Positions 3,232-23,014 of a stretch of DNA of 64,000 nucleotides are shown here, in pieces. The position numbers were made by a program, and so were the translations under genes. Position 1 is the first letter of the stretch. Each line of letters starts with the position of its first letter. The notes under the pieces are model-generated. The model saw only the letters and a list, made by a program, of their open reading frames with translations. It did no database searches and was not told the origin of the DNA. Location: assembly GCA_910585915.1 (NCBI GenBank), contig CAJUGF010000001.1, positions 4,622-68,621 on the forward strand. The letters run 5' to 3'. This DNA comes from an uncultured Bacilli bacterium. Its GTDB lineage: Bacteria > Bacillota_I > Bacilli_A > RF39 > UBA660.

Positions 3232-3297
3232 TTTTTCTTTGAAATTCTAATATAATCTGTTATAATACATATGGATTTAAAAGGAGGCAAGAAAAGT

Positions 3298-3471
3298 ATG
3301 GCTAAAAATATAAATAGACAATATGTTGGTCTTAAATGTAGTAGATGTGGCAAACAAATTCGTCCTACTGTAAAAAATAAGAAAAATACGACTGATAAAT
3401 TAGAATTAAAAAAGTATTGCCCTAATTGTCGTAAAGCAGTAGTATTTAAAGAAACTAAATTAGGTAAATAA
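3298..3471 (+). CDS. rpmG: 50S ribosomal protein L33
   Basis: RBS AAAGGAGG upstream of ATG at 3298. Small basic protein with two CxxC pairs (CSRCGK ... CPNCRK) and KKYCPxC, typical of L33. Confidence 0.8.
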   Translation: MAKNINRQYVGLKCSRCGKQIRPTVKNKKNTTDKLELKKYCPNCRKAVVFKETKLGK

Positions 3472-3490
3472 TAGAAAAAGGTGAGTCATA

Positions 3491-4051
3491 ATGCTTATTA
3501 ATATTAATGATATTAAAAATGGAATGACAGTTATTGTTGATGGGAATTTGTGTTTAATTCAAGAGTTTCAACATGTTAAACCTGGTAAAGGAAGTCCATT
3601 TATTAAAATTAAATTGAAAAATTTAAGAACAGGAAGTATTGTAGAAAATACTTATAATACGAATATTAAAATTGAAAGAGCACATGTAGATAAGATGCCA
3701 ATGCAGTTTTTATATGCTGATGGATCTAATTATGTATTTATGAATACAGAAACATATGAGCAATTAGAAGTTCCTGCTACTAAATTAGAAAGTGAATCTA
3801 GATTTTTAAAAGAGGGTATGGAAATTCAGATTGATCAATATGAAGGTGAAATTTTGGGGGTAACTTTACCAGAAAAGATTGAATTTGAGATTGTAGAAAC
3901 AGAACCAGCTGTCAAAGGAAATACTACGAATAATGCAATGAAGGATGCTACAATCGAAACTGGCTATGTTGTTAAAGTACCTTTGTTTATTAATCAAGGA
4001 GAAAAGATTGTTATTTCTACTAGTGATGGAAAGTATTCTGGAAGAGCTTAA
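3491..4051 (+). CDS. efp: Elongation factor P
   Basis: RBS AAGGTGA. Motif EFQHVKPGKGSPFIKIKLKNLRTGS, with the conserved KPGKG loop, and overall EF-P length and domain order. Confidence 0.93.
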   Translation: MLININDIKNGMTVIVDGNLCLIQEFQHVKPGKGSPFIKIKLKNLRTGSIVENTYNTNIKIERAHVDKMPMQFLYADGSNYVFMNTETYEQLEVPATKLESESRFLKEGMEIQIDQYEGEILGVTLPEKIEFEIVETEPAVKGNTTNNAMKDATIETGYVVKVPLFINQGEKIVISTSDGKYSGRA

Positions 4052-4065
4052 AGCTCTTTTTTTTC
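4043..4065 (+). terminator. Intrinsic terminator after efp
   Basis: Hairpin AGAGCT-taa-AGCTCT followed by a T8 run; the efp stop codon lies in the loop. Confidence 0.6.
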
Positions 4066-4100
4066 GTCATTTTTTTTGTTATACTATTTAAAATAGGGAA

Positions 4101-5774
4101 GTGTTGAGTGTGAAAGAAAATATACGCATGTTTCAAGAGTGGTATCGTCTTTGTAAGCCAAATAAAGCTTATTGGTTTTTTCAGTTTGCTACAGTAATTG
4201 TTATTAGTATTTGTTTGGTTTGTGAATCGATGTATGTAGCTAAGGTTACTACTAGTTTGGCTGAGGGAAATATTAGAATGGCAATATTTTGCTTGACACT
4301 TGGACTTTTATTTGTTTTGTTGCGTCAATTTTCTTGGATACTTAATTATAAAAATATGTATCATTTGATTGGTGATATTTATAAACGCTTGGAAATGAAA
4401 ATATTTCACAAAATAATTCATGGTAAAGAGAAAAATTTTGAAGCAATATCGAAAGAAAAATTAATTAATATTTTTCATAGTGATGCTTATGAAACCGCTA
4501 AATTTAGTGATCATATCTGTTCTAGATTTCGTTATTTGCTTTCTACATTATTAACTTTGGGTTACGTTTGTACAGTTTCTCTTCCAATTGCATTTGTTAT
4601 TCTTTTGATTATTATGGTTAATTACAAAATTCTTAATTGGATTAATGGGCGTATTAGTTTAGCAACAAAAGAAACAAAAGAAGCTGTCGATGCAGAATTT
4701 GAAACATTTTCTGAAATAATTTTATCTAAAAATATGATTGATTCTTATGATTTAACAAAGAAGATGGAACGAGAATTTCGAAAGAAAAATGATAATTTTA
4801 TGGTTCTTCAACAAAAGAAGAATATGGCTACTTCTATGTTAGAAAATAACTTTTTTGGTTATTATAAAACTGTTATTTACGGTATTACTTTGCTTTTAAT
4901 ATATTTGTTATCTTCTGGCAATCTTTCTTTAACTGTATATTTAATTGTAGTGTCTTATTTGACAGATAGTATTACAAATAGTAAAGATTTTATGGGAATT
5001 TTAACGGAATTAAAAAATGCTTATGTTACTTGTAATCGAGTTAATATTATTTTGAATTTTGATGAAAAAGAGGAGTTCTCTTTTGGTAATATTAAAGTGA
5101 ATGATATTTTGGGAGAAATAGATTTTATGAATGTTTCAGTGAATGCTTCTGAGATATTTGATTTTGAAGTGAATGATTTAAAAAATGTAAGTTTCCATAT
5201 TTCTTCCAATCAAACTGTTTTATTTCATGGAGCAAGGAGTAGTGGAAAACGAACGATATTTTATTTGCTTCGTCGGGTGATTATGCCAATGGAAGGTGAG
5301 ATATACGTTGATAAATATAAAATACAAGATTATCAGGAAAAAGTATATCGTAGAAATGTAAATTATTTAACAACTAAACCATTTTTTTATCATGGTTCTA
5401 TTCTCAGTAATTTAAAGTTAGTTCAATCAAATAATGAAAAAATAATTGATAGTTTGAAGGAAGTGGAACTATATGATTATATTATGGGTCTTCCGATGGG
5501 ATTAAAGTCAGAGGCGAATGCTTTACCACCTCGTGAGCAATATTTATTGGGGTTGGCCAGACTTTTACTTATGAATAGTGAAATTCTAGTTTTATATGAA
5601 TTTCCTAATTATTTAAGCAGTAAAGATAAGATGTTTATTAAAAATATTTTAATGAATATGCATGGTAAAAAAACCATTCTAGTGTTTTCGGCTAATGTAG
5701 ATATTGCTGATATTGCCGATCAGGTTTATGAGGTTGAACGTGGACGAGTTAATCTACATACTAAAAGAAGTTAA
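4101..5774 (+). CDS. ABC exporter-like half transporter (TMD+NBD) with degenerate ATPase motifs; start ambiguous (GTG at 4101/4110 or ATG at 4128)
   Basis: N-terminal 6-TM exporter-type domain. C-terminal NBD-like region with Walker A GARSSGKRT (K-R instead of K-S/T), signature LPPREQ instead of LSGGQ, Walker B ILVLYE (D to Y), and the H-loop His missing (TILVFSANV). Confidence 0.6.
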   Translation: MLSVKENIRMFQEWYRLCKPNKAYWFFQFATVIVISICLVCESMYVAKVTTSLAEGNIRMAIFCLTLGLLFVLLRQFSWILNYKNMYHLIGDIYKRLEMKIFHKIIHGKEKNFEAISKEKLINIFHSDAYETAKFSDHICSRFRYLLSTLLTLGYVCTVSLPIAFVILLIIMVNYKILNWINGRISLATKETKEAVDAEFETFSEIILSKNMIDSYDLTKKMEREFRKKNDNFMVLQQKKNMATSMLENNFFGYYKTVIYGITLLLIYLLSSGNLSLTVYLIVVSYLTDSITNSKDFMGILTELKNAYVTCNRVNIILNFDEKEEFSFGNIKVNDILGEIDFMNVSVNASEIFDFEVNDLKNVSFHISSNQTVLFHGARSSGKRTIFYLLRRVIMPMEGEIYVDKYKIQDYQEKVYRRNVNYLTTKPFFYHGSILSNLKLVQSNNEKIIDSLKEVELYDYIMGLPMGLKSEANALPPREQYLLGLARLLLMNSEILVLYEFPNYLSSKDKMFIKNILMNMHGKKTILVFSANVDIADIADQVYEVERGRVNLHTKRS

Positions 5775-5775
5775 A

Positions 5776-5816
5776 AATAAAAAACAAGCTTAGTTCATCT
5801 GAGCTTGTTTTTCATC
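5776..5816. terminator. Bidirectional intrinsic terminator between convergent ABC-like gene and murC
   Basis: Stem AAACAAGCT / AGCTTGTTT with an 11-nt loop, flanked by an A-run upstream and a T-run downstream. Confidence 0.6.
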
Positions 5817-7187
5817 TTTTAATGTATAACCAATTTGGTTTATTGTCCCTGCACCAATGGTGATGATGATATCATTTTCTTTAATGTTATCTTTTAGGTA
5901 ATTTAATATTTTTTCATAACTATTTAGAAAGATACAGTTTGTATTTTTCTTTTTTATTATAGTTTCCAAATCTTTGGAAGAGATATTATTTTCATTGGTT
6001 TCTCTGGCTGCATAGATCTCAGAAAGAATAATATGATCAAATTGTGATAAAATTTCAGCAAATTCATTTAAATGAGCTGTAGTTCTAGAGTAAGTGTGGG
6101 GTTCAAATATAGCCCAAGTTTCATGATGAGGTATGTCTTGACTACATTTATAAGTTGCTTCAATTTCAGTTGGATGGTGAGCATAATCATCAAAAATAGG
6201 AATATTTTTATATGTTCCAATTTTTTCAAATCGGCGATTTGCTCCTGTAAATTGTAATAGGCCATTTTGAATATTCTTTAAGTTTATTTTATATAAATCA
6301 CAGGTAGCAATTGTAGCTAGAGCATTTTGTATGTTATGAGTACCTAACACATTTAATTCAAAGGTTCCATAAAAATTTTGTTCTTTTAAAACATCAAATT
6401 TCGGAAATCCAAATTTATTTTTTTGAATGTTGATGGCTGTAAATGTAGCTTTGGGATTTTCTATTCCATAAGAAATCAAATTATGTGTTGTGTTTTTGAT
6501 AATATCGTAAGTGTTTTCATCATCAAGATTAGCAATAATTGTACCTGTTTCATTTAATCTTTCTGTAAATTTTTGAAATGATTTTTTGATGTTATCAATG
6601 TTTTGAAAATAATCTAAATGATCGTTATCTATATTTAGGATTATCTCTGTGTGAGGATGAAATTTAAGAAAAGAATCTACATATTCACAAGCTTCTAAAA
6701 TAAAGTATTCACTTTTTCCAGTTTTATTATTTCCTTTTATTTGTTTTAAATAAGCTCCTACTTCAATCGTAGGGTCTAGATTGGCTTCTAAAAAACAGGT
6801 GGCAATCATAGACGTAGTTGTCGTTTTTCCATGTGTTCCACTGATACATATACATTCTTGATAGCACTTGGTAAGTTCCCCTAAAAATTCACTGCGTTCC
6901 ATCATTGGTTTTCCCACTTGTTTTGCATACATGTATTCTTCATCGTTTGCTGGAATAGCAGCTGTATAAACTACTAAATCTGCTTGATCAATTATTTTAT
7001 TCTGATGACCAATCGTGATATTAATTCCTATCTTTTGAAGATGTTTTGTATTCTCGCTTTCTTTCGCATCGCTTCCTGTAATTATAAAGCCGAAATGGGT
7101 TAGGTGTTCTGCAAGACCACTCATACTTACACCACCAATTCCAATCATATGAATTTTATTCCATTGTTTTAAATTGTCTAATGTCAT
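5790..7187 (-). CDS. murC: UDP-N-acetylmuramate--L-alanine ligase
   Basis: N-terminus IHMIGIGGVSMSGLA (Mur ligase Rossmann), GTHGKTTTTSMIA P-loop, overall MurC length. ATG at 7187 is preceded by AAAAGAGGT. Confidence 0.9.
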   Translation of the reverse strand: MTLDNLKQWNKIHMIGIGGVSMSGLAEHLTHFGFIITGSDAKESENTKHLQKIGINITIGHQNKIIDQADLVVYTAAIPANDEEYMYAKQVGKPMMERSEFLGELTKCYQECICISGTHGKTTTTSMIATCFLEANLDPTIEVGAYLKQIKGNNKTGKSEYFILEACEYVDSFLKFHPHTEIILNIDNDHLDYFQNIDNIKKSFQKFTERLNETGTIIANLDDENTYDIIKNTTHNLISYGIENPKATFTAINIQKNKFGFPKFDVLKEQNFYGTFELNVLGTHNIQNALATIATCDLYKINLKNIQNGLLQFTGANRRFEKIGTYKNIPIFDDYAHHPTEIEATYKCSQDIPHHETWAIFEPHTYSRTTAHLNEFAEILSQFDHIILSEIYAARETNENNISSKDLETIIKKKNTNCIFLNSYEKILNYLKDNIKENDIIITIGAGTINQIGYTLKDEKQAQMN

Positions 7188-7335
7188 AAAAAAACCTCTT
7201 TTCACTCATTATTATATCGTATGTCTTGATAATGTAAAAGGCACAATTTTTGTTTTTCTTGGAAGATTGTTTAGAGTTTTAAGATTTAAGCTTTGTGTTT
7301 TTTCTGTCAAATTTGGTATTTTTGTTTTTCTATAC

Positions 7336-7364
7336 TTTACAATCATATTAAAATCATGTACTAT
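7336..7364 (+). promoter_or_regulatory. Candidate sigma-A promoter of the mraZ/dcw operon
   Basis: TTTACA (-35), 17-bp spacer, TACTAT (-10), immediately upstream of the MraZ box array. Confidence 0.45.
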
Positions 7365-7365
7365 A

Positions 7366-7401
7366 GTGGTAGATAGTGGCACAAGGTGGAAGAAAGTGGG
7401 G
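7366..7401 (+). promoter_or_regulatory. MraZ operator: four direct GTGG(G) repeats at exact 10-bp periodicity
   Basis: GTGG at 7366, 7376, 7386 and 7396 (the last is GTGGGG), 9 bp before the mraZ start. This matches the known MraZ binding architecture of direct TGGG-type repeats on a 10-bp period upstream of mraZ. Confidence 0.7.
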
Positions 7402-7408
7402 CAAAGAA

Positions 7409-7843
7409 ATGTTCTTAGGGGAATATCATCATAATATTGATGAGAAAGGGCGTATTGTATTGCCTTCTAAATTTCGTACAGAACTTAAGGATAAATTTAT
7501 CATTGCCCGTGGTCTTGAAAAGTGCTTGTATGTTTATTCTTTAGATGATTGGAATGAACTAGTAAGTAAATTAAATTCTCTACCTTTTACTAAAAAAGAT
7601 GCCAGGGCCTTTGTCCGTTCTTTTTTCTCTGGTGCTACTTTCTGCGAGTTCGATAGTCAAGGAAGAACTTGCATAACCTCCCCACTTGTTAGTTATGCCG
7701 GTTTAACGAAAGAATGTGTTATAATCGGCGCTAACAATCGTATTGAAATATGGGATAAAAGTGCTTGGGAGGAAGTACTTCAATATAGTGAAGATCATTT
7801 ATCTGATATTGCAGAAAACTTATTTATGGATGTGAATGTATGA
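7409..7843 (+). CDS. mraZ: Transcriptional regulator MraZ
   Basis: MFLGEYHHNIDEKGRIVLPSKFR with the duplicated MraZ/SpoVT-AbrB fold; first gene of the dcw cluster. Confidence 0.93.
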   Translation: MFLGEYHHNIDEKGRIVLPSKFRTELKDKFIIARGLEKCLYVYSLDDWNELVSKLNSLPFTKKDARAFVRSFFSGATFCEFDSQGRTCITSPLVSYAGLTKECVIIGANNRIEIWDKSAWEEVLQYSEDHLSDIAENLFMDVNV

Positions 7844-8784
7844 AACATTATTCAGTGTTGAAGATGGAATCATTAGAATACTTAAATATTAAAGAAGATG
7901 GTATTTATGTTGATGCAACGCTTGGATATGCAGGTCATTCTAGTGAAATTTTGAAACGAATTCCAAATGGATATTTATATGCTTTTGATGCGGATATGGA
8001 AGCAATACGATATTCCGATTCTGTATTGAAAGAGATTGGAACAAATTATGAAATTATTCATGCAAATTATGAGGATATGAAAGAGGAACTTTTGAAACGG
8101 GGAGTACAAGTGGTTGATGGAATACTGTTTGATCTTGGTGTATCAAGTCCACAGATTGATTCTATGACAAGAGGTTTTTCTTTTATGAGAGAAGAAATTT
8201 TGGATATGCGGATGGATCAAACACAAGATTTTGATGCAAAGATTCTTTTAAATACGTATTCTTATGAGGCATTACGTGATATTTTCTTTCAATTTGGAGA
8301 AGAAAAGAAGAGCGCTTTGATTGCTAAAAAAATAGTGGATGTAAGAAATAAAAAACGATTTGAAACAACGATAGAGCTTGTAGAAGTAATTAAAGAAGCA
8401 GTTGGAGCAAATTATTTTTATAAAAATCATCCAGAGCGAAAAATTTTTCAAGCAATTCGTATTGAAGTGAATCATGAACTTTCTAGTTTAGAGTGTGTAT
8501 TACCAGATGCAATATCATTACTTAAACAAGGGGGAAGAATTAGTGTTATTACATTTCATTCATTAGAAGATCGTATTACCAAAAAAGTTTTTAAACAATT
8601 TAGTGAAGTAGATGACATGGTAAAAGGGTTACCTGAAATACCATATGAGTATCAACCAATGATTCAGTTGGTTCTTCGTAAACCGCTTTTGCCTAGTGAT
8701 AAAGAAGTTAATGAAAATAGTCGAAGTAAGAGTGCAAAGCTTCGAGTTATTGAAAGGATAAAAGAAAATGAAAAAGAGAAATAA
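7840..8784 (+). CDS. rsmH: 16S rRNA (cytosine1402-N4)-methyltransferase RsmH (MraW)
   Basis: HYSVL ... YVDATLGYAGHS SAM-binding motif; position after mraZ; 4-nt overlap. Confidence 0.93.
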   Translation: MKHYSVLKMESLEYLNIKEDGIYVDATLGYAGHSSEILKRIPNGYLYAFDADMEAIRYSDSVLKEIGTNYEIIHANYEDMKEELLKRGVQVVDGILFDLGVSSPQIDSMTRGFSFMREEILDMRMDQTQDFDAKILLNTYSYEALRDIFFQFGEEKKSALIAKKIVDVRNKKRFETTIELVEVIKEAVGANYFYKNHPERKIFQAIRIEVNHELSSLECVLPDAISLLKQGGRISVITFHSLEDRITKKVFKQFSEVDDMVKGLPEIPYEYQPMIQLVLRKPLLPSDKEVNENSRSKSAKLRVIERIKENEKEK

Positions 8785-9061
8785 TACAGTAAAAATTTTA
8801 AGAGGAGAAAAAATTATTTATGGAATGATTTTTTTATTAATTATTTCTATGCCTATTTGTACAGTACTTACAAAAGCCTTTTTGTCTGAAAGTAATATTC
8901 AAGTAGAACAAATGAAGTCCAAAATTGAAACCCAGACAGATAAAAATGAATCTCTAAGTATGCAGATTGATGAGTTAGCAAGTCTTGATAAAGTACAAGA
9001 AGTTGCAAGTGAAAAAGGATTGAGTTATAATAATGATAATGTTAAAGTAATTACAGAATAG
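8768..9061 (+). CDS. ftsL: Cell division protein FtsL
   Basis: 97 aa, single TM (IIYGMIFLLIISMPICTVL) followed by a coiled-coil; located between rsmH and a PBP. Confidence 0.75.
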   Translation: MKKRNNTVKILRGEKIIYGMIFLLIISMPICTVLTKAFLSESNIQVEQMKSKIETQTDKNESLSMQIDELASLDKVQEVASEKGLSYNNDNVKVITE

Positions 9062-9071
9062 GATCATTTTT

Positions 9072-11192
9072 ATGAAGAAGAGAAAAGGCAGATTTAAAAT
9101 TACAATGAATATCAATTTAAAGATAACATTGCTTGTCTTTTCTTTTTTGTTTTTGTTCATCATTATTAAACTTGCTTATGTTGTTTTAAGTGATAATGTT
9201 GATGGTATTAATTTGACTGAGTTTGCTAATAATCGAAATACTACTAAACAGACTTTGTATGCTTCGCGAGGATCAATTTATGACGTTAACGGAGATGAAC
9301 TTGCTAAAAATGTGAAGTCTTATACGGTCATTGCTTATTTGTCTTCTAGTAGAACAACGAACGAAAAGAAGCCAGAACATGTGGTGGATCCTGAGGGAAC
9401 GGCAAAGGCTTTAGCACCAATTATTCATATGAGTGAAGAAGCCATTTTGAAGTTATTAAGCCAAAAGTTATATCAAGTAGAACTTGGCCCTGGAGGAAGA
9501 GGTATTACTGAAGATACTAAAAAACAAATTGAAGATTTAGAACTTCCAGGGATTAGTTTTATTACTAGTATGAAGCGCTTTTATAAAAATAAGAGTTATG
9601 CTTCTTATTTAGTTGGTTATGCTCGAAGTGATGATAGTGGTGAGATTAAAGGTCAGATGGGGGTTGAATCTTACTATGATGATCTTTTAAAAGGAACAGA
9701 TGGTTATACAGAGTATCAACAAGATGCTGCTGGATATCCAATGCCTAATACACAGATTACAAAAGAAGCAGAAAGTGGAGCAGACATTTATTTGACAATC
9801 AATAATAATATTCAATTAATTTTGGAGAATGTATTAACCAAACTAAAAAATGAGCATAGTTTGGAGTGGGCACAGTTTTCAGTGATGGATGCTAAAACTG
9901 GAGCAATTGTAGGAAGTGCTACCGTTCCTAATTTTGATCTAAATACTTTAAAAGGGATTACTTCTTATTTGAATCCTTTAACAAGTTATCAATATGAACC
10001 TGGTTCAACGATGAAAATATTTTCTTTTATGGCAGCGATTGAAAATGGAATTTATAAGGGCGATGATACTTTTCAGTCAGGGCATATTATTTTGAATGAT
10101 GGAACACGTATTAATGATTTTAATAATGTTGGATGGGGAACTATTAATTATGATACTGGTTTTTCTTACTCTTCTAATGTAGCTGCTACTAAACTTGCTC
10201 TTAATTTAGGTGTTTCAAAGTTAAAAGATTTTTATGAAACTTGTGGTTTTGGAAAGAAAACTGGAATTACTTTACCAAGTGAAAGTATAGGATCTATTAA
10301 TTTTAATTATGAAAGTGAATTAGCTAACGCGAGTTTTGGGCAAGGGATGAGTGTTACACCAATTCAAATGCTACAGGCATTGTCAAGTCTTGTAAATGAT
10401 GGAATTATGATTAAGCCTTATATTGTTTCTAAGGTGGTTAATTCTAAAGGGGAGATCATTCAAAGTGGTCAACGAGAAGAAGTTGGACGAGTTGCTAGTG
10501 TAACTACTATTTCGCGCATGAAGAAAATGATGTATGATGTTGTTTATAATGGTTTTTCTTATAATAAAGGGTATGCTCCTAGCAATGTGACGATTGCTGG
10601 TAAAACAGGTACAGCACAGATTGCTAGTCCAAAAGGTGGCTATTTAACTGGGGAATACGATTATATTAAGAGTTTTGCTGGATTTTTTCCTTATGAAGAT
10701 CCCCAATATGTTTTATATTTTTCAACGAAACAGTTAGTTAGTAGTAGTGCAGATATTATGCAAGTTGTTTCTTCCACAATTGGAGAAATTGCAAAAGTCA
10801 TGAGTATTCAAGATAATAGTAGCGATGAGACTGTTCAAAAAGTGGTTATTATGAATAATTATATTTCTCAACAATTGGATAGTAGTCTTGAGGATTTGAA
10901 AAAATTACAATTAAACCCTATTGTATTAGGAGAAGGTAGTCATGTTATTTCACAGTATCCTAAAGTTGGAAGTAGTGTTTTACAAAAATCTAAGGTGTTT
11001 TTGCTTACTAATGATACAACTTATAAAATGCCAGATGTAATTGGTTGGAGTACGAATGATTTAATTCGTTTTTGTAATATGATTGGTCTTTCTTATCATA
11101 TGAATGGATATGGAAAAGTTGTTAGTACTAATATAGAAGCAGGTAGTATCATTGATTTGAATGTCCCTTTAGAAATTCAACTTGGAATTTAA
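9072..11192 (+). CDS. Class B penicillin-binding protein (FtsI/PBP2B-like transpeptidase) with C-terminal PASTA domains
   Basis: N-terminal TM, PBP dimerisation region, transpeptidase motifs STMK (SxxK) and SSN, KTGT(A) box, and two C-terminal PASTA-like repeats. Confidence 0.88.
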   Translation: MKKRKGRFKITMNINLKITLLVFSFLFLFIIIKLAYVVLSDNVDGINLTEFANNRNTTKQTLYASRGSIYDVNGDELAKNVKSYTVIAYLSSSRTTNEKKPEHVVDPEGTAKALAPIIHMSEEAILKLLSQKLYQVELGPGGRGITEDTKKQIEDLELPGISFITSMKRFYKNKSYASYLVGYARSDDSGEIKGQMGVESYYDDLLKGTDGYTEYQQDAAGYPMPNTQITKEAESGADIYLTINNNIQLILENVLTKLKNEHSLEWAQFSVMDAKTGAIVGSATVPNFDLNTLKGITSYLNPLTSYQYEPGSTMKIFSFMAAIENGIYKGDDTFQSGHIILNDGTRINDFNNVGWGTINYDTGFSYSSNVAATKLALNLGVSKLKDFYETCGFGKKTGITLPSESIGSINFNYESELANASFGQGMSVTPIQMLQALSSLVNDGIMIKPYIVSKVVNSKGEIIQSGQREEVGRVASVTTISRMKKMMYDVVYNGFSYNKGYAPSNVTIAGKTGTAQIASPKGGYLTGEYDYIKSFAGFFPYEDPQYVLYFSTKQLVSSSADIMQVVSSTIGEIAKVMSIQDNSSDETVQKVVIMNNYISQQLDSSLEDLKKLQLNPIVLGEGSHVISQYPKVGSSVLQKSKVFLLTNDTTYKMPDVIGWSTNDLIRFCNMIGLSYHMNGYGKVVSTNIEAGSIIDLNVPLEIQLGI

Positions 11193-11259
11193 GGAATTAT
11201 AATTCTCATCCTAAGAAAAAATAAAATTATACGAATTGGGAAGGAGAAAAGTGATTCTT

Positions 11260-12009
11260 ATGGTAAAACATTTTATTATTATGGGAAGTTCTTATGAAAC
11301 AAAACGAAAAATTGCATTAGATGTAGTTGGAGAAGAACGAGTTTGTGAAAAGGAAGTTCGTTCTATTATGGATTATTTGAAAGAAAATTGTCTTTTAAGT
11401 TCTATTTCTACACATATGATTATTACCGATTCTCCAACTTTTCAATCTGTACAAAATCATGATCATTTTTTTTCTAATGTTAGTCTAATTTCAACAAAAG
11501 AAGAATTTGTTAATCTAATTAATAAAGATCGATATTTAAAAGGAATTGATGTAGCTAATTATATAAAAACACGTATTTCTTGTACTCATTTAAAAATTGA
11601 AAAATTAACTTATCTTTGTTATGCTGATTATCTTTGTGCTTATCATAAGCCTTTATTTCAAGATAAAATATTCGCTTATGCTAAGGGACCAGTGGTACAA
11701 TCCGTTTATCGAAAGTTTAAAGGCATAAAATCTTTATTAAATGTGAGTGAGGATGATAAGAAGGAATATTCTAATAAAAGTGCTTATATGTCTGTACGTA
11801 GTAGAATTATGGTTTCAGAAGATGGATTATATAAATTGGATAGTATTAATAAAACTTTAGAGAAGTATGGCCATTTGAAAGGTCAAGAATTAGTAGAATT
11901 GACACATAGAGTGGATAGTCCATGGGTTTATTCGGGAAGTGGAAAGAAAAAATATCAAAAAATTACAGATGATATTATTTTGAAATATCATTGTAATGAG
12001 ATTCTTTGA
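11260..12009 (+). CDS. Panacea/GepA-like (DUF4065) domain protein, solo; ORF track starts at 11236 (TTG)
   Basis: Core LKIEKLTYLCYADYLCAYHKPLFQDKIFAYAKGPVVQSVYRKFKG closely matches the Panacea/SocA-GepA domain consensus (KLQKLLYyaq ... PLF.d.i.AW.yGPVvpsvY). Flanked by novel N- and C-terminal extensions. RBS GGAAGGAG. Confidence 0.75.
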   Translation: MVKHFIIMGSSYETKRKIALDVVGEERVCEKEVRSIMDYLKENCLLSSISTHMIITDSPTFQSVQNHDHFFSNVSLISTKEEFVNLINKDRYLKGIDVANYIKTRISCTHLKIEKLTYLCYADYLCAYHKPLFQDKIFAYAKGPVVQSVYRKFKGIKSLLNVSEDDKKEYSNKSAYMSVRSRIMVSEDGLYKLDSINKTLEKYGHLKGQELVELTHRVDSPWVYSGSGKKKYQKITDDIILKYHCNEIL

Positions 12010-12104
12010 TATTGTGATGTTGTGTATTTTGAAACTGGAAAAATTATCGCTTAAAGATAATTTTTTTTCTTTTAGTAATAAAAATGTTATAAATTCCATA
12101 ATTT

Positions 12105-12215
12105 GGGCTCGACAAATTTAAAAAATGTGATAAAATAACAACTTAATTAATCATTTTATGGGGGTTGTGATGTATTTTCGACAAATTGCGACAAATGTGG
12201 TGACAAATGTGTGTT
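12105..12215 (+). promoter_or_regulatory. Array of four GACAAAT direct repeats upstream of the polysaccharide locus (candidate transcription-factor binding sites)
   Basis: (C/T)GACAAAT at 12111, 12180, 12190 and 12202; the last three are on a 10-12 bp (helical) period and followed by GTG. They sit in the 290-bp intergenic region before the initiating sugar transferase gene. Confidence 0.5.
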
Positions 12216-12301
12216 AAGTTAATGTTATGATCTGTGAAGTAAAGTAGATTAATGTTATACTTTTATTAAGTTAAAGGGGATTTAAAAGGAGAGGTTGGTT
12301 T

Positions 12302-12979
12302 ATGAATCAAGAAAAGGTTTTAATTGAAAGTACGCATAGTGGAATTGCTACTTTTAAGAAGATTTGTTATGTTTGTAGTAAAAGAACATTTGATGTTTTA
12401 GTGAGTCTGATTGGAATGTTATGGTTACTTCCACTTGCTATTATTATTAAAGTAATTTATGTGTGTACAGGGGATTTTCATAGTATTTTTTATAAGCAAG
12501 AGAGAATTGGCCTTCATGGAAAAACTTTTATGCTTTATAAGTTTCGTACAATGAAACCACATGCAGATGAGTTACTTAAAATTATTCTTGCAAATAATGA
12601 AGATTTGCGTAATGAATATGAAGAAAATAAAAAAATGAAAAATGATCCTCGTATTACGAAAGCTGGTAAAATAATTCGTAAACTTTCTTTGGATGAATTT
12701 CCTCAATTTATTAATATTTTTAAGGGAGATATGAGTTTGGTTGGAAATCGTCCTTATTTACCACGTGAGAAAGAAGATATGGGAAGTTATTATAAATATA
12801 TTATTAAAACAAAACCCGGTCTTACTGGATATTGGCAAGTGAATGGTAGAAGTAATACAACGTTTATTGATCGACTTAGAATGGAGAAAAAGTATAGTAA
12901 TATTCAAAGTTTTGGTTTAGATGTCAAGATCATTTTTAAAACAATGGAACAATTTATTAAACATAATGGAGCTATGTAA
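12302..12979 (+). CDS. Polyprenyl-phosphate sugar phosphotransferase (bacterial sugar transferase, WbaP/CpsE C-terminal domain type)
   Basis: Single N-terminal TM then the Bac_transf domain motifs (KFRTM, DELPQ-like DEFPQFINIFKGDMSLVGNRP, YWQV). RBS AAAGGAGAGG. Confidence 0.88.
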   Translation: MNQEKVLIESTHSGIATFKKICYVCSKRTFDVLVSLIGMLWLLPLAIIIKVIYVCTGDFHSIFYKQERIGLHGKTFMLYKFRTMKPHADELLKIILANNEDLRNEYEENKKMKNDPRITKAGKIIRKLSLDEFPQFINIFKGDMSLVGNRPYLPREKEDMGSYYKYIIKTKPGLTGYWQVNGRSNTTFIDRLRMEKKYSNIQSFGLDVKIIFKTMEQFIKHNGAM

Positions 12980-13054
12980 TTTTATAGCTTTTTTTATTGA
13001 AAAGTTTTGAAAATTTTGGATAGTATGTTAAAATTATATTGGAAGGTAAGTTTT

Positions 13055-14233
13055 ATGAAACACGTTTTTATTATTGGATCTAAAGGTATTCCAGCTAATT
13101 ATGGAGGATATGAAACTTTTGTACATAAATTAACTGAATACCAAAAGAATAAACATCTTAAATTTCATGTAGCATGTGCAGTGGATGATTTGTCTAAACA
13201 TTCAATTGAGTTTGAATTTAATGGAGCGCATTGTTTTAATATTGAATGGCGCAGGCTTGGATCTGCACGAGCTATTTTTTATGATGTGGATGCATTAAAA
13301 TGGGCTATTCAATATGTTAAAGCCAATAAAATAGAAAAACCAATTTTTTATATTTTGGCATGTCGAATGGGGCCATTTATTCATAAATATAAGAAAATTA
13401 TTTCTAGTTTAGGTGGAAAACTTTATGTTAATCCAGATGGTCATGAATGGTTACGAAGTAAATGGAGTTTGCCAGTTAGAAAATATTGGAAGATTTCAGA
13501 AAGTTTAATGATAAAACATGCTGATTTAGTAATATGTGATAGTAAAAATATTGAAGAATATATTCATAAAGAATATAAAAAATATCATCCTAATACAACT
13601 TATATTGCTTATGGTGCAGAAACTTCTCCATCTACTTTATCTGATGATGATAATAAATGGAAGGAATGGCTTAGTAAAAATCAAGTAAAATCTAATCAAT
13701 ATTATTTGATTGTGGGAAGATTTGTACCAGAGAATAATTATGAAACTATGATTAGAGAATTTTGTAATTCAAATATTTCAAAGGATTTGGTTATTATAAC
13801 TGGGGTAAAATCTAATGATAAATTTTTTGATTATTTGAGTCAAACTACAAATTTTCAAAAGGATAAGCGTGTAAAGTTTGTTGGAACAGTTTATGATCAA
13901 GATCTTTTAAAAAAAATTCGTGAAGAAGCTTATGGATATTTGCATGGACATGAGGTTGGAGGTACCAATCCAAGTTTATTAGAAGCTTTAGGTTTAACAA
14001 AGCTAAATCTTTTATTCGATGTCGGTTTTAATCGAGAAGTGGCACTTGATACTGCTTATTATTGGACCAAAGAAAAAAATAATTTATCTAAACTTTTAGA
14101 AAAGTGCGAAAATTTGAGTGCAGCAGAGATCAATGATATTTCTAAATCTGCGAAAAAGATTATTCGGGAAAAATATAGTTGTGAGTACATTAACGAACGA
14201 TATGAAAGGTTGTTTTATGATGGAGAAAAATGA
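13055..14233 (+). CDS. Glycosyltransferase family 4 with DUF1972-type N-terminus (WchF/Cps2T-like rhamnosyl/glycosyl transferase)
   Basis: N-terminus MKHVFIIGSKGIPANYGGYETFV is typical of DUF1972-GT4 enzymes. C-terminal GT4 E..GG..P..LEA-type region (HGHEVGGTNPSLLEA). Confidence 0.75.
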   Translation: MKHVFIIGSKGIPANYGGYETFVHKLTEYQKNKHLKFHVACAVDDLSKHSIEFEFNGAHCFNIEWRRLGSARAIFYDVDALKWAIQYVKANKIEKPIFYILACRMGPFIHKYKKIISSLGGKLYVNPDGHEWLRSKWSLPVRKYWKISESLMIKHADLVICDSKNIEEYIHKEYKKYHPNTTYIAYGAETSPSTLSDDDNKWKEWLSKNQVKSNQYYLIVGRFVPENNYETMIREFCNSNISKDLVIITGVKSNDKFFDYLSQTTNFQKDKRVKFVGTVYDQDLLKKIREEAYGYLHGHEVGGTNPSLLEALGLTKLNLLFDVGFNREVALDTAYYWTKEKNNLSKLLEKCENLSAAEINDISKSAKKIIREKYSCEYINERYERLFYDGEK

Positions 14234-15047
14234 TTTTTTGTTGCAGATTCAGTCTTTAGAACTGGAAGCTTTAAAAGAATTAAAATCGTTTTGTGATAAG
14301 CATCAAATAAAGTTCTTTTTACGTGGTGGTAGTGTTATGGGAGCAATTAAGTATTCAGGATTTGTTCCTTGGGATGATGATGCAGATATTGCTATTCCTA
14401 GAGATCAGTATGATAAGTTAATAAGTCTTTGTCAGACAGAAGAATGGTCCGAAAAATTCTATATTGCCAGTTATCATTATAATTCAGAAATACATTGTTA
14501 TTTCCCAAGAGTTTTAGTTAAAAATGAGGTTTTAGAACAATTGCAATTACCAAAGAATAATCATTTAGGTTTAACCATTATTGATATTTTGCCATTAGAT
14601 GGTGCTCCAAAAAGTCGCTTTGCTCGGGAATTATATTTTTTCAAAGTTTATGTTTTAAGAGCGTTAGCAGGGGTTCATACTCTTAGTATTAAAGAAACTG
14701 TTGATATGCATGATAGCAAAAAAAGACTTGTTTTAAAATTATTAAAATTTTTTCATGTTGATTCTTTGTATTCTCAAGATCAAATATATCATGCTCTTGA
14801 TCGCTTATATAAAAGATATGACTATAAAACTTGCAAACATATAGGTACTCTTACTGGATCTTTGTATAAGAAAGAAATTTTTCCAAGAGATTATTGGGGG
14901 GAAGGCGTTTATCATAAATTTTGTGATACTGAATTTTTAGTTCCAGATGAATATGATAAATATTTGCAACAATTATATGGAAAGGATTATATGACTACTA
15001 TACCAACAGAAGAGAAGATTGCAGCAAAAAAACATATAAAAGAGTAG
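14217..15047 (+). CDS. LicD-family phosphotransferase (phosphocholine/polyol-phosphate transfer to glycopolymers)
   Basis: LRGGSVMGAIKYSGFVPWDDDADIAIPR matches the LicD nucleotidyltransferase-fold DxD motif; overlaps the upstream gene by 17 nt. Confidence 0.8.
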   Translation: MMEKNDFLLQIQSLELEALKELKSFCDKHQIKFFLRGGSVMGAIKYSGFVPWDDDADIAIPRDQYDKLISLCQTEEWSEKFYIASYHYNSEIHCYFPRVLVKNEVLEQLQLPKNNHLGLTIIDILPLDGAPKSRFARELYFFKVYVLRALAGVHTLSIKETVDMHDSKKRLVLKLLKFFHVDSLYSQDQIYHALDRLYKRYDYKTCKHIGTLTGSLYKKEIFPRDYWGEGVYHKFCDTEFLVPDEYDKYLQQLYGKDYMTTIPTEEKIAAKKHIKE

Positions 15048-15059
15048 TATGAGAAATTT

Positions 15060-15935
15060 ATGATAGGGTTTGTTATTTTACATTATATGGCTTATGATGA
15101 AACCATAAAATGTACAGAGAAAATTTTAGAAAATGTGAGAGAAGAAAAAAAAATTGTAATTGTTGATAATGCGTCTAGTAATGGTTCAGGGCAAAAGTTA
15201 AAAGAATATTTTGCTAATAATGATGATGTTATTGTAATTTTACAATCATCTAATTTAGGATTTGCTAAAGGAAATAATATTGGATTTCAATATATAAAGA
15301 GTAATTTTAATTGTGATTATTTAGTGATACTTAATAACGATGTAGAGATATCTGATCAATGTTTTAAAGAAAAATTGGATGATGCTTATCAAAAATATGA
15401 TTTTGATGTTTTGGGACCTGATATTTATTGTACCACTTTAGATGTTCATCAAAGTCCTAAAAGGTTATCTTCTTATACTTACAATGAAGTTGTAAGTGAA
15501 TTAGATAAATATAGAAAAAAATCTCAAAGCAAGTATGTTACTGCATTTAAATGTTATTTGAAGAAAATTCCTTTTTTAAAGAAAATGGTACATGGGAAAA
15601 GACGTGGAAGACAGCAGATTGATTATAATAAAACTTATTTTAATGTTCCATTACATGGCTCTTGTGTTGTTTATTCAAAAAAATTTATAGAAAAAAGATC
15701 CTATGCTTTTTTTGATCAAACTTTTATGTATTTTGAGTTAGAAATATTGGATTATGAATGTCATAGAGATTCTATGAAAACGGTGTATTATCCAGCTATT
15801 AAAGTTTTACATCATCATAATGTTTCAACTAATCTGGCATATAAATCTGAACTTCAAAAAGTTCATTTTATGAATCAATGTATATGTGAATCATTAGAAA
15901 AATTTGTAGAACTAATGGAAAAGGATAGAAATTAA
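15060..15935 (+). CDS. Glycosyltransferase family 2
   Basis: VIVDNASSNGS, LNNDVE (DxD-like) and the GT-A architecture. Confidence 0.8.
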   Translation: MIGFVILHYMAYDETIKCTEKILENVREEKKIVIVDNASSNGSGQKLKEYFANNDDVIVILQSSNLGFAKGNNIGFQYIKSNFNCDYLVILNNDVEISDQCFKEKLDDAYQKYDFDVLGPDIYCTTLDVHQSPKRLSSYTYNEVVSELDKYRKKSQSKYVTAFKCYLKKIPFLKKMVHGKRRGRQQIDYNKTYFNVPLHGSCVVYSKKFIEKRSYAFFDQTFMYFELEILDYECHRDSMKTVYYPAIKVLHHHNVSTNLAYKSELQKVHFMNQCICESLEKFVELMEKDRN

Positions 15936-15949
15936 AAGAGGGTGAATTA

Positions 15950-17293
15950 ATGGAATACTTAGTATTACTGTTTATTACAGAAATTTTCTTTTTAATGATT
16001 TCTTATTTTTCGACTGGGAGAGATATTTTAAGACCTATAAATGTTATGCTTGGAATGTTTTGTTTAAGTACTTTCATTGCGCTTTTGAATGTATTTAATT
16101 GGAATATTGTTTATTCATGGCGCTCTTATTTTATTCTTTCCACAGGGTTATTAGTAGCTTTAATGGCAGATGTTTTTGCTTATAAAAAAAATGATAAGAA
16201 GGCTATTGTTTCAAAAAGAGAGTTAAAAAAAATTGACATTTCTACTTATAAAATTTATTTTATTATTTTGGTTGAATTGGTGATTCTTTTCTTGTATTAT
16301 CGAGAAATAAGACGGCTTGCTATTTTAGATGGTTATGTGGATGGTGCAAACTTATTATGGCATTTTCGAAATATTACTTCTTATACAAGTGAGGAGAGCT
16401 TACGAGGAATTATTAGTTTATTAATTAAATTCATTGATGCTGTTGCTTATGTTTTATCATTTGTTTTGATTAATAATTTATTTTCTAAAAAAATTAAAAA
16501 AAGTGAAGTAGTGCTTTTCTCAATTCCTATTTTATTGTTTGCAGGTAAGGTGTTAATGAGTTCTGCTAGAATGGAATTATTACGTTGGGGAGCTTATTCT
16601 TTTGTTGTAAGTTATATATTGTATAAATATAAAGTTGGATGGGATAAAAATACTACTAAGAGATATGTTACTAAAGGTCTAATTTTAATTCCTGTTGTTT
16701 TATTATTATTTTATTATGCTTCTAGTATTATTGGACGTTCAACAACACGTTCTATGTTTGATTATATATCTACTTATGCAGGTGGTTCTATTCAACATTT
16801 TAATCAATATATTGATTCACCTACCACGACTGAACATTTTGGAGAGGAGACTTTCCCTGCCGTTTATACTATGTTTAAAAGAATCGGATTAACTGATTAT
16901 AGTCGTCCTGTGCATTTGGAAATGCGTCAATTGGGAGTAACTCAGGGCAATGTTTATACTTTTTTTCGCAGACCTTATAATGATTTTGGATATTTTGGAA
17001 TGTTGATTTTTACTTTTATTTTGATTTTTTTCTTTTCTAATGTGTATTCAAAATTTAAGTATAAACACAATAGTTATAGAAATGATTGCGTAATAATTTT
17101 TTACAGTTATTTATTTTATTGGATTGTTCTTTCTTCAGTAGAGCAATATTCAATTGGTTTTGTATCAATGGGTACTGTTTTAACTCTTATTTATTTTCGA
17201 TTATTATATTTCTTTTTTATTCAACTAAAAATACAAAAGTCGAAAATTATTATATATAAAAGCAAAGAGGGGATTTTGAATGAAGGAGAGTAA
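15950..17293 (+). CDS. Polytopic membrane protein, probable Wzy-type polysaccharide polymerase
   Basis: About 10-12 predicted TM helices with one larger loop; its position between the glycosyltransferases and the flippase suggests Wzy. Functional call by context only. Confidence 0.5.
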   Translation: MEYLVLLFITEIFFLMISYFSTGRDILRPINVMLGMFCLSTFIALLNVFNWNIVYSWRSYFILSTGLLVALMADVFAYKKNDKKAIVSKRELKKIDISTYKIYFIILVELVILFLYYREIRRLAILDGYVDGANLLWHFRNITSYTSEESLRGIISLLIKFIDAVAYVLSFVLINNLFSKKIKKSEVVLFSIPILLFAGKVLMSSARMELLRWGAYSFVVSYILYKYKVGWDKNTTKRYVTKGLILIPVVLLLFYYASSIIGRSTTRSMFDYISTYAGGSIQHFNQYIDSPTTTEHFGEETFPAVYTMFKRIGLTDYSRPVHLEMRQLGVTQGNVYTFFRRPYNDFGYFGMLIFTFILIFFFSNVYSKFKYKHNSYRNDCVIIFYSYLFYWIVLSSVEQYSIGFVSMGTVLTLIYFRLLYFFFIQLKIQKSKIIIYKSKEGILNEGE

Positions 17294-18671
17294 ATTAACT
17301 AAAGGTATGCTATATGTTTTAATGGCAAATATTGTGAATTTAATTTTTACATTGGCTACTAATTTTTTACTTCCGAAATATTTGTCTGTTGATACTTATG
17401 CTGCTATTAAAACTTTTCAATTATATGTTACTTATATTGGCTTTTTTCATTTTGGTTTTGTAGATGGAGTTTATTTGAAATTTGGTGGAAAGAATTTAGG
17501 AGCTTTGGATAAAAAAGAAACTATGCGTTCTTTGGCTACTTTGCGTATTTTCCAATTTTTACTTTCATTGTTTTTCATTCTTTTTGCTTTGGTTATTGAT
17601 GATATGATTTTGTTAATGTTTTCATTAGCCATTCTTCCTTTAAATGTAACTTCTTATTTTAAAATGCTTTATCAGTCAGTGGGGGAATTCCAAAAATATA
17701 GTAAGATTACTAATTATGTTGCAGTTTTAACTTTTGTAGTAAATATGATTTTATTATTCTTTTTCCGTAGTGCATCGTTTATGGCTTATTTATTTTGGTA
17801 TGTTTTAATAGATTTGTTTGTTTGGTTTCTTTTAGAATTTAGTTTTTGTAAAGTTTTAAATGAAAAAATTCGTCTATTTTATTTTTCTTTTCAAGAATTC
17901 TTTTCTAATATAAAATCTGGTTTTTCTTTGATGCTTGGAAATTTTGCTTCATTTATTTTAACAGGGCTTGACCGTTGGTTTGTAAAAATATTGATGTCTA
18001 CTATATCATTTGCTCAATATTCGTTTGCTGTGAGTGTCGAAAATATGCTTAACGTGGCTTTGACACCTATCTCTATACCTTTATATAATTATTTTTGTAA
18101 TGAAGATTCCTCTAAAAAAATAAATTTTGTATATCAAGGTATGGTTTTATTTGGGGTAGTTATTGTTTCATCAGCTTTTGTTGTTAAATTTATTCTGGAA
18201 GTATTTTTGACTAATTATTTAGATTCATCTGTCATTATATTTTATTTATTTGCTGCTCAAATATTTCAAATTTTAATTAAGTCTGTGTATGTCAATTTAT
18301 ATAAGGCTAGGAAGCAACAAAAGAAGTATTTTCATCGTTTGTTGTTCGTTGTTTTTTCAGGAATTGTTTTTAATATTGTTTTTTATCTTTTATTAAAAAA
18401 TATTTCAGCTTTTGCCATTGGAACTTTATTTTCTTCTATTTTGTGGTTTCTTTTTTCAAGATGGGATTTTAAAGATATTGGAAATCAATTTCAACTTTTT
18501 CTATTTTTAATTTTAGAAACATTGTTATTTTTATCTTGTGGAATTTTGTTAAATTCTATATGGGGATTTTTATGTTATGTGATAGGTTCTCTTTTCTTTA
18601 GTTTTATTTTTATGGGGGATTATATTATTAACTTATTTAAAATGCTTAAAAGTAAAATTTTGTCAAAATGA
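17280..18671 (+). CDS. Polysaccharide flippase (Wzx / MOP superfamily)
   Basis: 463 aa with about 12-14 TM helices and the Lys-rich N-terminus typical of Wzx; locus context. Confidence 0.6.
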   Translation: MKESKLTKGMLYVLMANIVNLIFTLATNFLLPKYLSVDTYAAIKTFQLYVTYIGFFHFGFVDGVYLKFGGKNLGALDKKETMRSLATLRIFQFLLSLFFILFALVIDDMILLMFSLAILPLNVTSYFKMLYQSVGEFQKYSKITNYVAVLTFVVNMILLFFFRSASFMAYLFWYVLIDLFVWFLLEFSFCKVLNEKIRLFYFSFQEFFSNIKSGFSLMLGNFASFILTGLDRWFVKILMSTISFAQYSFAVSVENMLNVALTPISIPLYNYFCNEDSSKKINFVYQGMVLFGVVIVSSAFVVKFILEVFLTNYLDSSVIIFYLFAAQIFQILIKSVYVNLYKARKQQKKYFHRLLFVVFSGIVFNIVFYLLLKNISAFAIGTLFSSILWFLFSRWDFKDIGNQFQLFLFLILETLLFLSCGILLNSIWGFLCYVIGSLFFSFIFMGDYIINLFKMLKSKILSK

Positions 18672-18758
18672 TTTACATAAAATGTTAATTTTTTATGTAA
18701 TTTTATTTGAAATAGATTATAATCATGATATATTCAATATAGTGTGGAGGGATTTTTA

Positions 18759-19460
18759 ATGGAAGAAATTAATATTGGAGAATTTTTCTCATTTGTTAAG
18801 AAACATTTAATCTTTTTTGTTTCTATGATTTTAATGATTTTAGTTATTTGTATTTTGTATTTTATAGTAATTAAAAAGCCAATATATTCATCTGATGTAT
18901 CTTTAACTTTAACTGGAGTTAATGATTCTCAAGGTAGAGTTACAACCAATGATATTACTTTAAATACAAAAATGTTACCTACCTATCAAGAGGTAATTAC
19001 AAGTCGTAAGGTACTTGATCAAGTAATTAATAATTTAAAGCTTAATAAAACCGTTTCCGAGCTTGTTGGACATATTAAAATTCAAGCTAATACGGATTCG
19101 ATGGTTTTAAATATTACGGTTACGGATGAGAATCGAGTGATTGCTAAAGATATTGCTAATGAAGTGGCTAGTATTTTTGGGGAAGAAATTAAAATTTATG
19201 GTATTACGAGTGTTACTATTTTAGATAAGGCTATTGTAAATGATACACCTATAAATATTAATTATACTAAATCAATTTTGATTAGTTTGTTGGCTGGAAT
19301 ATTTATTTCTTTGGTTTGTTTGTTTATTGTCTTTTATTTAGATACTACGGTAAAAGGTATGGAACAAGTTAATACAAAGTTAGGTCTTGTTGTCTTGGGT
19401 GGAGTTCCACTTCATACAGAAAATACCAAGGGAGTTAGAAAGGGGTTAAAACGTAAATGA
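18759..19460 (+). CDS. Chain-length determinant / BY-kinase modulator (CpsC/YwqC-like Wzz domain)
   Basis: N-terminal TM, periplasmic Wzz-like region, second TM near the C-terminus, basic tail (KGVRKGLKRK); the stop overlaps the start of the kinase gene. Confidence 0.75.
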   Translation: MEEINIGEFFSFVKKHLIFFVSMILMILVICILYFIVIKKPIYSSDVSLTLTGVNDSQGRVTTNDITLNTKMLPTYQEVITSRKVLDQVINNLKLNKTVSELVGHIKIQANTDSMVLNITVTDENRVIAKDIANEVASIFGEEIKIYGITSVTILDKAIVNDTPININYTKSILISLLAGIFISLVCLFIVFYLDTTVKGMEQVNTKLGLVVLGGVPLHTENTKGVRKGLKRK

Positions 19461-20131
19461 AAAATGAATTAATTGTTGATCAAAATCCTAAATCTTCAGT
19501 AGCAGAAGCAATTCGTATTGTTCGTACTAATCTTCAATTTTCTTCAGCAGATAAAGAAGTTAAAACAATTTTAGTAACTTCGTCGATCGCAGGAGAAGGA
19601 AAAAGTTTTATTAGTTCTAATTTGGCTATTGCTTTTGCTCAAAATGGAAAAAAAGTATTATTAATTGATTGTGATTTACGAAGAGGCCGTTTACATCGAA
19701 TTTTTAATCTTGAAAATGATAAAGGGCTTTCTAATCTTTTGATTTCTGATATTCAAGCAAATTTTTCAGGATATTTACAGAAGACTAGAATTAAAAATTT
19801 ATTTTTATTGTCTAGTGGTAGTGTTCCTCCAAATCCTAGTGAACTTTTGGATTCTAAGAAAAATGAAACTCTTATTGAACTTTTAAGTAAAAAGTTTGAT
19901 TATATTATTTTTGATGGAACTCCAGTTGGAGGATTAACTGATTCGGTTATTATGGCTAAATATGTAGATAAGGTAGCTATTGTATGTGCTGTTAATTATA
20001 CAAAGGTTGATCAACTTGTTAATACACAAAAGACTTTAGAGAATATTGAAGCAGATATTGCAGGTGTTATTGTTAATAAGATTCCTGATATGCATAGTAG
20101 TTATTATGGCAATTATTATGTAGAAGATTAA
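19457..20131 (+). CDS. Tyrosine-protein kinase (CpsD/YwqD BY-kinase, P-loop ATPase)
   Basis: Walker A SSIAGEGKSF, Walker A' LLIDCDLRR, and a C-terminal Tyr cluster YYGNYYVED. Confidence 0.88.
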   Translation: MKNELIVDQNPKSSVAEAIRIVRTNLQFSSADKEVKTILVTSSIAGEGKSFISSNLAIAFAQNGKKVLLIDCDLRRGRLHRIFNLENDKGLSNLLISDIQANFSGYLQKTRIKNLFLLSSGSVPPNPSELLDSKKNETLIELLSKKFDYIIFDGTPVGGLTDSVIMAKYVDKVAIVCAVNYTKVDQLVNTQKTLENIEADIAGVIVNKIPDMHSSYYGNYYVED

Positions 20132-20176
20132 TTGAAACTGGATTATAATTTTCAGTTTTTTCTTTTGGAGGATTGT

Positions 20177-22330: not shown

Positions 22331-22404
22331 GAATTTATATATCTTTTTTTCTTGGTAATTGGAAGCATACGTGTTATAATATTTCCACTTTTGGTGGGGT
22401 GCAT

Positions 22405-22950: not shown

Positions 22951-23014
22951 ATATTAAATATGGGTGTTTGTTCTAAAACATGATATTTTCTATATATTTT
23001 ATATAGGTGATACC

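Follow-up and report, generated by a model that had tools for sequence, protein, structure and literature searches.

SocA of Caulobacter is a type VI antitoxin that acts as a proteolytic adaptor. Antitoxins with a Panacea domain are partners of many toxin types, and those of the PanA group act by direct binding rather than by delivery to ClpXP as SocA does (Kurata et al., 2022, PMC8832971). One N-terminal domain found in PanA antitoxins, PAD1, has conserved histidines and is nearly always paired with a toxSAS, the gene of which always lies upstream (Kurata et al., 2022, PMC8832971). The same study reported that a GPV motif matters for neutralisation by Vibrio harveyi PanA and that, in cross-tests, PanA antitoxins protected against their cognate toxins only.

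The closest described system is PhRel2:ATphRel2, known from Bacillus subtilis Ia1a and from phage Lily (gp31/gp32), in which the antitoxin consists of PAD1 followed by Panacea. In the B. subtilis Ia1a PanA, PAD1 alone neutralises PhRel2, and the substitution H52P abolishes neutralisation (Ernits et al., 2023, PMC10440598). According to Dominguez-Molina et al. (2024, PMC11782079), PAD1 adopts the same pseudo-zinc-finger fold as ATfaRel2 and CapRel, and one example of a PAD1 antitoxin is in the PhRel2 pair of phage Lily. ATfaRel2 of Coprobacillus sp. D7 (PDB 8PU1-8PU4) is a single-domain protein of 74 residues without Panacea.

Here we describe a gene of this kind in a 64-kb window (the whole stretch of DNA that was analysed). 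The first-pass annotation had described a solo Panacea protein at a dcw site. Sequence comparisons identify the gene as a PAD1-Panacea antitoxin and demonstrate the deletion of its cognate toxSAS gene together with a predicted promoter. We therefore consider it highly probable that the gene is the antitoxin half of a PhRel2-type toxSAS/PAD1-Panacea module that has lost its toxin, most likely a recent relic.

The antitoxin gene and its domains

The gene and its two domains lie at the following positions:

11260..12009, + strand: PAD1-Panacea antitoxin gene (ATphRel2-type PanA), 249 aa, intact, stop codon included (from the ORF, profiles and homologs)
11260..11544, + strand: PAD1 domain, residues 1 to about 95, with a pseudo-zinc-finger-like fold; the toxSAS-neutralising part in characterised relatives
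11599..11925, + strand: Panacea (DUF4065) core, residues 114-222 (from Pfam); the fold reaches about residue 247

The ORF list and the sequence agree on 249 uninterrupted codons from the ATG at 11260 to the stop codon at 12007-12009. The original call of a Panacea domain was right, since Pfam SocA_Panacea (PF13274) matches residues 114-222 above its cut-off (E=3.7e-14, 54.1 bits against 25.7) and over nearly the whole profile (positions 2-112 of 113). The Panacea domain is shared with SocA of Caulobacter, but the protein scores under the cut-off of the NCBIfam SocA equivalog NF047745 (60.1 bits against 190, residues 104-243) and has no SocB partner. The phage-derived family phrog_10390 (PHROGs) spans almost its full length (residues 4-246, E=9e-35), and the PADLOC-DB defence-system models gave no family match at E<=1.

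Two extensions had been ascribed to the protein. The C-terminal one, of about 100 aa, is absent: the Pfam match runs to residue 222 and the NCBIfam match to 243, and the AlphaFold model (pLDDT 93) has helices up to residue 247. By the model and the NCBIfam match, the approximately 27 residues that follow the Pfam match are part of the folded Panacea domain. The N-terminal one, put at about 90 aa, does exist, with about 95 residues and a linker, but it is not unfamiliar, as it corresponds to the published PAD1. A Foldseek search with the model matched this domain to the ATfaRel2 fold, a pseudo-zinc-finger, and not to an enzyme. Fold comparison alone tied the antitoxin to ATfaRel2 (about 14% identity) and DarG, and neither single-sequence nor profile searches of PDB sequences returned a match. 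Within the 249-aa protein, Pfam gave no match to RelA_SpoT. Taken together, sequence, fold model and analogy with characterised relatives, in which this domain neutralises the toxin, identify the N-terminal extension as PAD1 and not as a toxin.

We found 50 full-length homologs of about 250 aa in a 90%-clustered collection and 214 homolog representatives at E<=1e-10 in a 50%-clustered one. Their conserved N-terminal residues are H4, Y12, R17, H52, D68, F71 and F83. Lily gp32, which unlike the B. subtilis Ia1a protein was compared directly, shares 34% identity with the antitoxin over its full length (E=4e-38, residues 1-244), with the first 60 residues ungapped. H52, conserved in 71 of 74 species, is present; it may correspond to the B. 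subtilis Ia1a residue, judging by equal numbering and the ungapped Lily gp32 alignment, not by a direct alignment. The GPV motif corresponds to G143-P144-V145, of which G143 and P144 do not vary across two sets of 60 and 74 family members. The locus has the two-domain, 249-aa antitoxin of PhRel2:ATphRel2, with a histidine at position 52 and the GPV motif, and differs from that system in that the toxin gene and its promoter are deleted. It also differs at PAD1 position 17 (window 11308-11310), which is K in this species and R in 74 of 74 other species; K17 is carried by toxin-bearing sister strains as well. PAD1-Panacea is an already described antitoxin architecture, and the gene is not a novel fusion with a toxin, nor has it been recruited to housekeeping.

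A deletion removed the toxin gene

Comparison with other assemblies placed two further features immediately upstream of the antitoxin gene:

11192..11193, no strand: deletion junction, where 591 bp (L012 9341-9931) are absent (from blastn blocks and the L012 sequence)
11193..11254, + strand: 3' remnant of a toxSAS (PhRel2-like) gene, with its original TGA at 11252-11254 (from the alignment with L012)

The window is 100% identical to contig L011 (GCA_949518705.1). The antitoxin protein of contig L012, which derives from a different sample, is identical, and both flanks match the window at 99.1-99.2% identity; 591 additional bases lie between the PBP and antitoxin genes of L012. The blastn blocks pair L012 1-9340 with window 1854-11192 and L012 9932-20750 with window 11191-22008. 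At this site L012 carries a 197-codon gene that ends 5 nt before the antitoxin ATG, and L013 and L014 have an upstream toxin gene arranged in the same way. Phage Lily shows the same gene order, with gp32 14 nt after the 'GTP pyrophosphokinase-like' gp31. Missing from the window are some 90% of the toxin gene, the ribosome-binding site and a promoter-like TTGCTT-18-TGTTATAAT; the promoter-like element (an extended -10) was read by eye in L012, the promoter scan having missed it.

Using the L012 toxin as a tblastn query, we recovered 19 codons of the toxin gene at window 11195-11251 (84% identity), a remnant that the first-pass annotation does not mention. Because the last 19 codons and the TGA stop of the toxin gene are retained, the window allele is the derived, deleted state. 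A toxSAS gene immediately upstream is a feature of ATphRel2-type systems; it is present in L012-L014 and in 51 of 74 species, and reduced to the remnant in the window. The earlier view of a PanA-type antitoxin protein standing without a toxin partner is borne out; deletion of the cognate toxin gene explains why the antitoxin gene is solo. A functional type II module needs intact genes for both partners, and the window has lost that of the toxin. As the 591-base deletion removed the neighbouring toxin gene, we regard the locus as an ordinary decaying module and not as a new system.

Relative to all three toxin-bearing alleles, five bases of the remnant have changed, one change producing a premature TAA at 11222-11224. 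All five fall within 29 nt of the junction (11194-11222), compared with 0-1 changes in the next 750 nt, and all deletion-allele contigs share them. Simple neutral decay does not explain this cluster. The C>T change at 11222 gave rise to a -10-like TAAAAT located 33 nt 5' of the antitoxin ATG.

The deleted toxin

Pfam RelA_SpoT (PF04607) matches four toxins of the family at E=1.3e-6 to 3.3e-4. The L012 toxin (E=6.6e-5) is below the cut-off, and the L003 homolog is the only one of the four above it (29.1 bits against 27). The L012 toxin shares 37% identity with Lily gp31 (E=2e-25). Searched against the PDB, the single toxin sequence gave chance-level matches only, and a profile of 28 family members matched FaRel2 (8pu4, E=3.5e-13), followed by small alarmone synthetases and CapRel (7ztb, 1.5e-3). 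Residues R79, K81, G114, R116, Y149, H153, E167 and Q169 are invariant across the toxin family. The profile alignment pairs the RVK, GxR and ExQ motifs (R79, R116, E167 and Q169) with their FaRel2 counterparts; the ATP-coordinating residues of FaRel2 are R64, R95, E145 and Q147 (PMC11782079). By these comparisons the deleted gene is identified as a PhRel2-like toxSAS with a RelA/SpoT synthetase domain.

Toxicity and neutralisation are predicted from relatives of these proteins. In the intact module, the upstream gene would make a small RelA/SpoT-like enzyme that, by homology, would pyrophosphorylate the 3'-CCA ends of tRNA and so halt translation. The antitoxin would bind the toxSAS through PAD1 and block its ATP-donor site, as described for relatives, and Panacea would play an accessory part, perhaps as a sensor. 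Comparison with the sister strains shows that a single 591-bp deletion took away the predicted module promoter and left just the final 19 codons of the toxin gene; the orphan antitoxin would now have nothing to neutralise in cis. Transcription of the orphan, if any, would come from dcw/PBP read-through or from a weak new promoter.

Surroundings of the gene

Two elements flank the antitoxin gene:

11238..11246, + strand: Shine-Dalgarno-like GGGAAGGAG, 13 nt 5' of the ATG (read directly); within the last codons of the toxin gene in the intact module
12039..12069, + strand: A/T-rich hairpin (an inverted repeat) lying 30 nt past the stop codon, with a 7-nt loop between 10-nt arms and a T run behind it

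The PBP gene ends at 11192, leaving a 67-nt gap to the antitoxin ATG. As first noted, no toxin ORF adjoins the gene: none of the neighbouring ORFs is toxin-sized. A promoter scan of 11193-11259 gave no convincing promoter, a terminator scan gave no G+C-rich terminator, and Rfam models had no match over 10900-12500. We consider GGGAAGGAG a putative ribosome-binding site of the antitoxin gene on the strength of its Shine-Dalgarno-like sequence. The hairpin (-11.7 kcal/mol, z=-1.9), which a G+C-dependent terminator scan did not detect, could have ended the former toxin-antitoxin operon as a weak, terminator-like element.

The interval 12010-12301 had been put forward as a place to look for small, unannotated ORFs. 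It yielded no toxin candidate: two small ORFs lie in or near it (41 aa on the + strand and 69 aa on the - strand), neither with a family match, and its content is limited to promoter-like and repeat elements for the polysaccharide operon. Upstream of that operon (12109-12211), the direct repeat TCGACAAATT occurs twice, at 12109 and 12178, and GACAAATGTG twice, at 12190 and 12202; the first repeat overlaps a promoter-like TCGACA-16-TAAAAT with TG. These repeats may be operator sites.

The antitoxin gene and the polysaccharide-synthesis locus together occupy about 11.7 kb (11193-22950) inside the dcw cluster, between PBP paralogs at 9072-11192 and 22964-24922. Genes of the polysaccharide locus encode Bac_transf, glycosyltransferases, LicD, Wzz, a tyrosine-kinase-like ATPase and LytR-CpsA-Psr. 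Further along the dcw cluster, a 1339-codon ORF (29061-33080) between ftsW and murG encodes sigma-70 regions 1.2 to 4 in residues 170-419, and the approximately 900 residues that follow had no Pfam match at E<=1e-5.

Alleles within the species

We found an identical junction and remnant in 14 loci examined, the window included; 12 of these loci encode two near-identical antitoxin variants (V2A; D219Y). In total, the deletion allele is present on about 21 contigs and the intact module on 3 (a count that includes places not shown). The identity of junction and remnant across deletion loci, together with these counts, points to a single deletion in an ancestor, which has become the common allele.

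Only one deletion-allele contig has an antitoxin gene that is not intact. In this contig, L108 (2302-3052), which shares the junction, a T8-to-T9 change shifts the antitoxin reading frame near codon 70, within PAD1 (window equivalent 11466-11473); this may be the first sign of orphan decay or a homopolymer sequencing error.

Solitary antitoxins from decayed type II loci are alike in that the toxin was lost first, the antitoxin is intact and the 3' end of the toxin gene persists as a remnant. Such loci are polymorphic within species, as here, and we see no difference in kind. Compared with other orphan antitoxins, the event at this locus is datable to one deletion with a defined junction in many strains. 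On the normal decay path of toxin-antitoxin modules, the toxin must go first. The orphan is most likely a recent relic on this path, and any residual benefit may be cross-immunity against related toxins.

A common deletion allele with an intact antitoxin fits selection-driven retention as well as it fits recency. The orphan could thus be kept as stand-alone immunity against PhRel2-type toxins from phages, plasmids or other strains, either as an anti-addiction function or as protection from the toxins of superinfecting or resident prophages. This is the best surviving alternative, and the deletion allele being the major one speaks for it. We nevertheless consider it unlikely: the deletion deprived the antitoxin gene of its promoter, PAD1 is frameshifted on one deletion-allele contig, and PanA antitoxins protected only against cognate toxins in the published cross-tests (PMC8832971). 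Relatives in other species bear on the same question.

Related loci in other species

We surveyed 80 loci from GTDB species representatives, 74 of them assessable, in a search seeded on conserved antitoxin peptides; the genome scan for related loci used an alignment of 13 close antitoxin sequences. In other species, a gene of 197-216 codons with weak RelA_SpoT matches precedes the homolog at 5-16 nt or with a short overlap. Directly upstream of the antitoxin we found an intact toxSAS in 51 of the 74 species loci, a degraded one in 18 and none in 5. The degraded genes had acquired nonsense codons or frameshifts, or had lost 5' sequence and, like the window, retained the 3' end.

In every toxin class the antitoxin ORF is full length, and the 25 most conserved residues are kept equally (95-97%). 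Pairwise dN/dS of the antitoxin is 0.06-0.25 in every class and 0.13-0.22 between two toxin-less loci. Three-taxon branch counts for orphan antitoxins are inconsistent, and their topologies are unverified.

These data lend the immunity explanation some of its appeal, since in 23 of 74 species a full-length antitoxin, with its conserved residues kept as well as in loci that have the toxin (96-97%), stands beside a degraded or absent toxin, dN/dS is low even for two toxin-less loci, and relatives of the module are borne by phages. They are not readable as selection on orphans, because the antitoxin-seeded search under-samples decayed antitoxins, pairwise dN/dS blends the periods before and after toxin loss, and the branch counts disagree. 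That orphan PAD1-Panacea genes have time and again been retained without their toxins, as stand-alone sensors or immunity factors against toxSAS, is accordingly a tentative proposal that we think improbable, and decay of the module with the toxin lost first is our preferred reading.

Several loci in the survey have features of their own. L079 and L080 (3383-3986) share the same single toxSAS frameshift, and both halves have a dN/dS of 0.07-0.09. Possibly the toxin is split and still works, the frameshift marks a recoding site, or both assemblies share an artefact. Because the dN/dS of these halves is below 0.1, some toxins classed as degraded may be artefacts or still active. An in-frame TGA in L039 might encode Trp. 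In L071 (188-1546), a Lachnospiraceae MAG, toxSAS and PAD1-Panacea antitoxin lie in a single 453-codon ORF; this fusion could be reminiscent of CapRel, and could equally reflect a lost stop codon or an assembly error. L016 (3692-5686) has a toxin-less PAD1-Panacea gene (4001-4735) amid four ORFs that are paralogs of one another, each about 80 aa long; one precedes the gene and a tandem array of three follows it. The closest homolog from another species (61% identity), in L001 (1143-5249), has a defence-island-like setting, where its neighbours encode a YobI-type ATPase of 1140 aa and another Panacea protein, shorter at 175 aa.

Other readings of the locus

A second alternative is that the antitoxin acts in trans on a toxin encoded elsewhere in the genome, either a paralogous toxSAS or a toxin of another type. 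Many toxin types pair with Panacea antitoxins (PMC8832971), and a genome may hold several modules, as illustrated by the second Panacea gene in L001 and by the two loci of Lentibacillus salinarum (L092 and L093). In the 64-kb window, however, there is no other toxSAS-like sequence, and in sister strains the cognate toxin was encoded at this very site, immediately upstream, where it is now deleted; the suggestion of a toxin encoded elsewhere is thus unsupported. The toxin gene is also directly upstream in all reported PAD1 cases (PMC8832971). The exact toxin protein is recorded from one contig, L012, with partial copies at the ends of L013 and L014, and it is not on record in this assembly, since the protein cluster lists no NCBI source. 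We judge action in trans to be quite improbable.

Recruitment of the Panacea protein to a housekeeping role in division or wall synthesis, as had been proposed from its dcw location, is very improbable. Its position alone is suggestive: the gene directly follows the PBP gene on the same strand, across the 67-nt gap and with no terminator found. In sister strains, however, the toxin gene and promoter separate the antitoxin gene from the PBP gene. The dcw cluster resumes 11 kb on, beyond the inserted polysaccharide locus, with a second PBP, MraY, FtsW, MurG and MurB. Nor is the gene conserved at this dcw position in relatives: across the 80 loci from other species, dcw genes were never beside the antitoxin gene in the arrangement seen in the window. 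A tblastn search of the related loci with RsmH, FtsL, PBP2B and the downstream transferases gave one unrelated PBP match, downstream in L045. The place of the module varies between species, and relatives also occur on phages and viral contigs. We rejected the housekeeping role on the grounds of the arrangement (0/80) and these varying sites.

Finally, toxSAS-antitoxin fusions exist (CapRel, PMC9712102; the 453-aa fusion in L071), but the idea that an extension of this protein is itself the fused toxin was rejected as scarcely credible, as the N-terminal domain has an antitoxin fold and not that of an enzyme, the protein has no RelA_SpoT match and there is no C-terminal extension.

Implications

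The result is mainly a correction: what looked like a solo Panacea gene at a dcw site is a described antitoxin architecture with a deleted toxSAS partner. The 23 of 74 species in which the toxin is degraded or absent beside an intact antitoxin suggest how frequent toxin-first decay is, a figure subject to ascertainment bias. If orphans are in fact kept, this would explain the dominance of the toxin-less allele in this species, as well as the approximately one third of related species that have an intact antitoxin and a broken or missing toxin. The locus also provides a natural experiment, in which strains of one gut species differ by the 591-bp loss of a predicted tRNA-targeting toxin with the antitoxin left in place. 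With such strains it should be possible to learn if an orphan antitoxin is expressed and if it confers protection from related toxins carried by phages.
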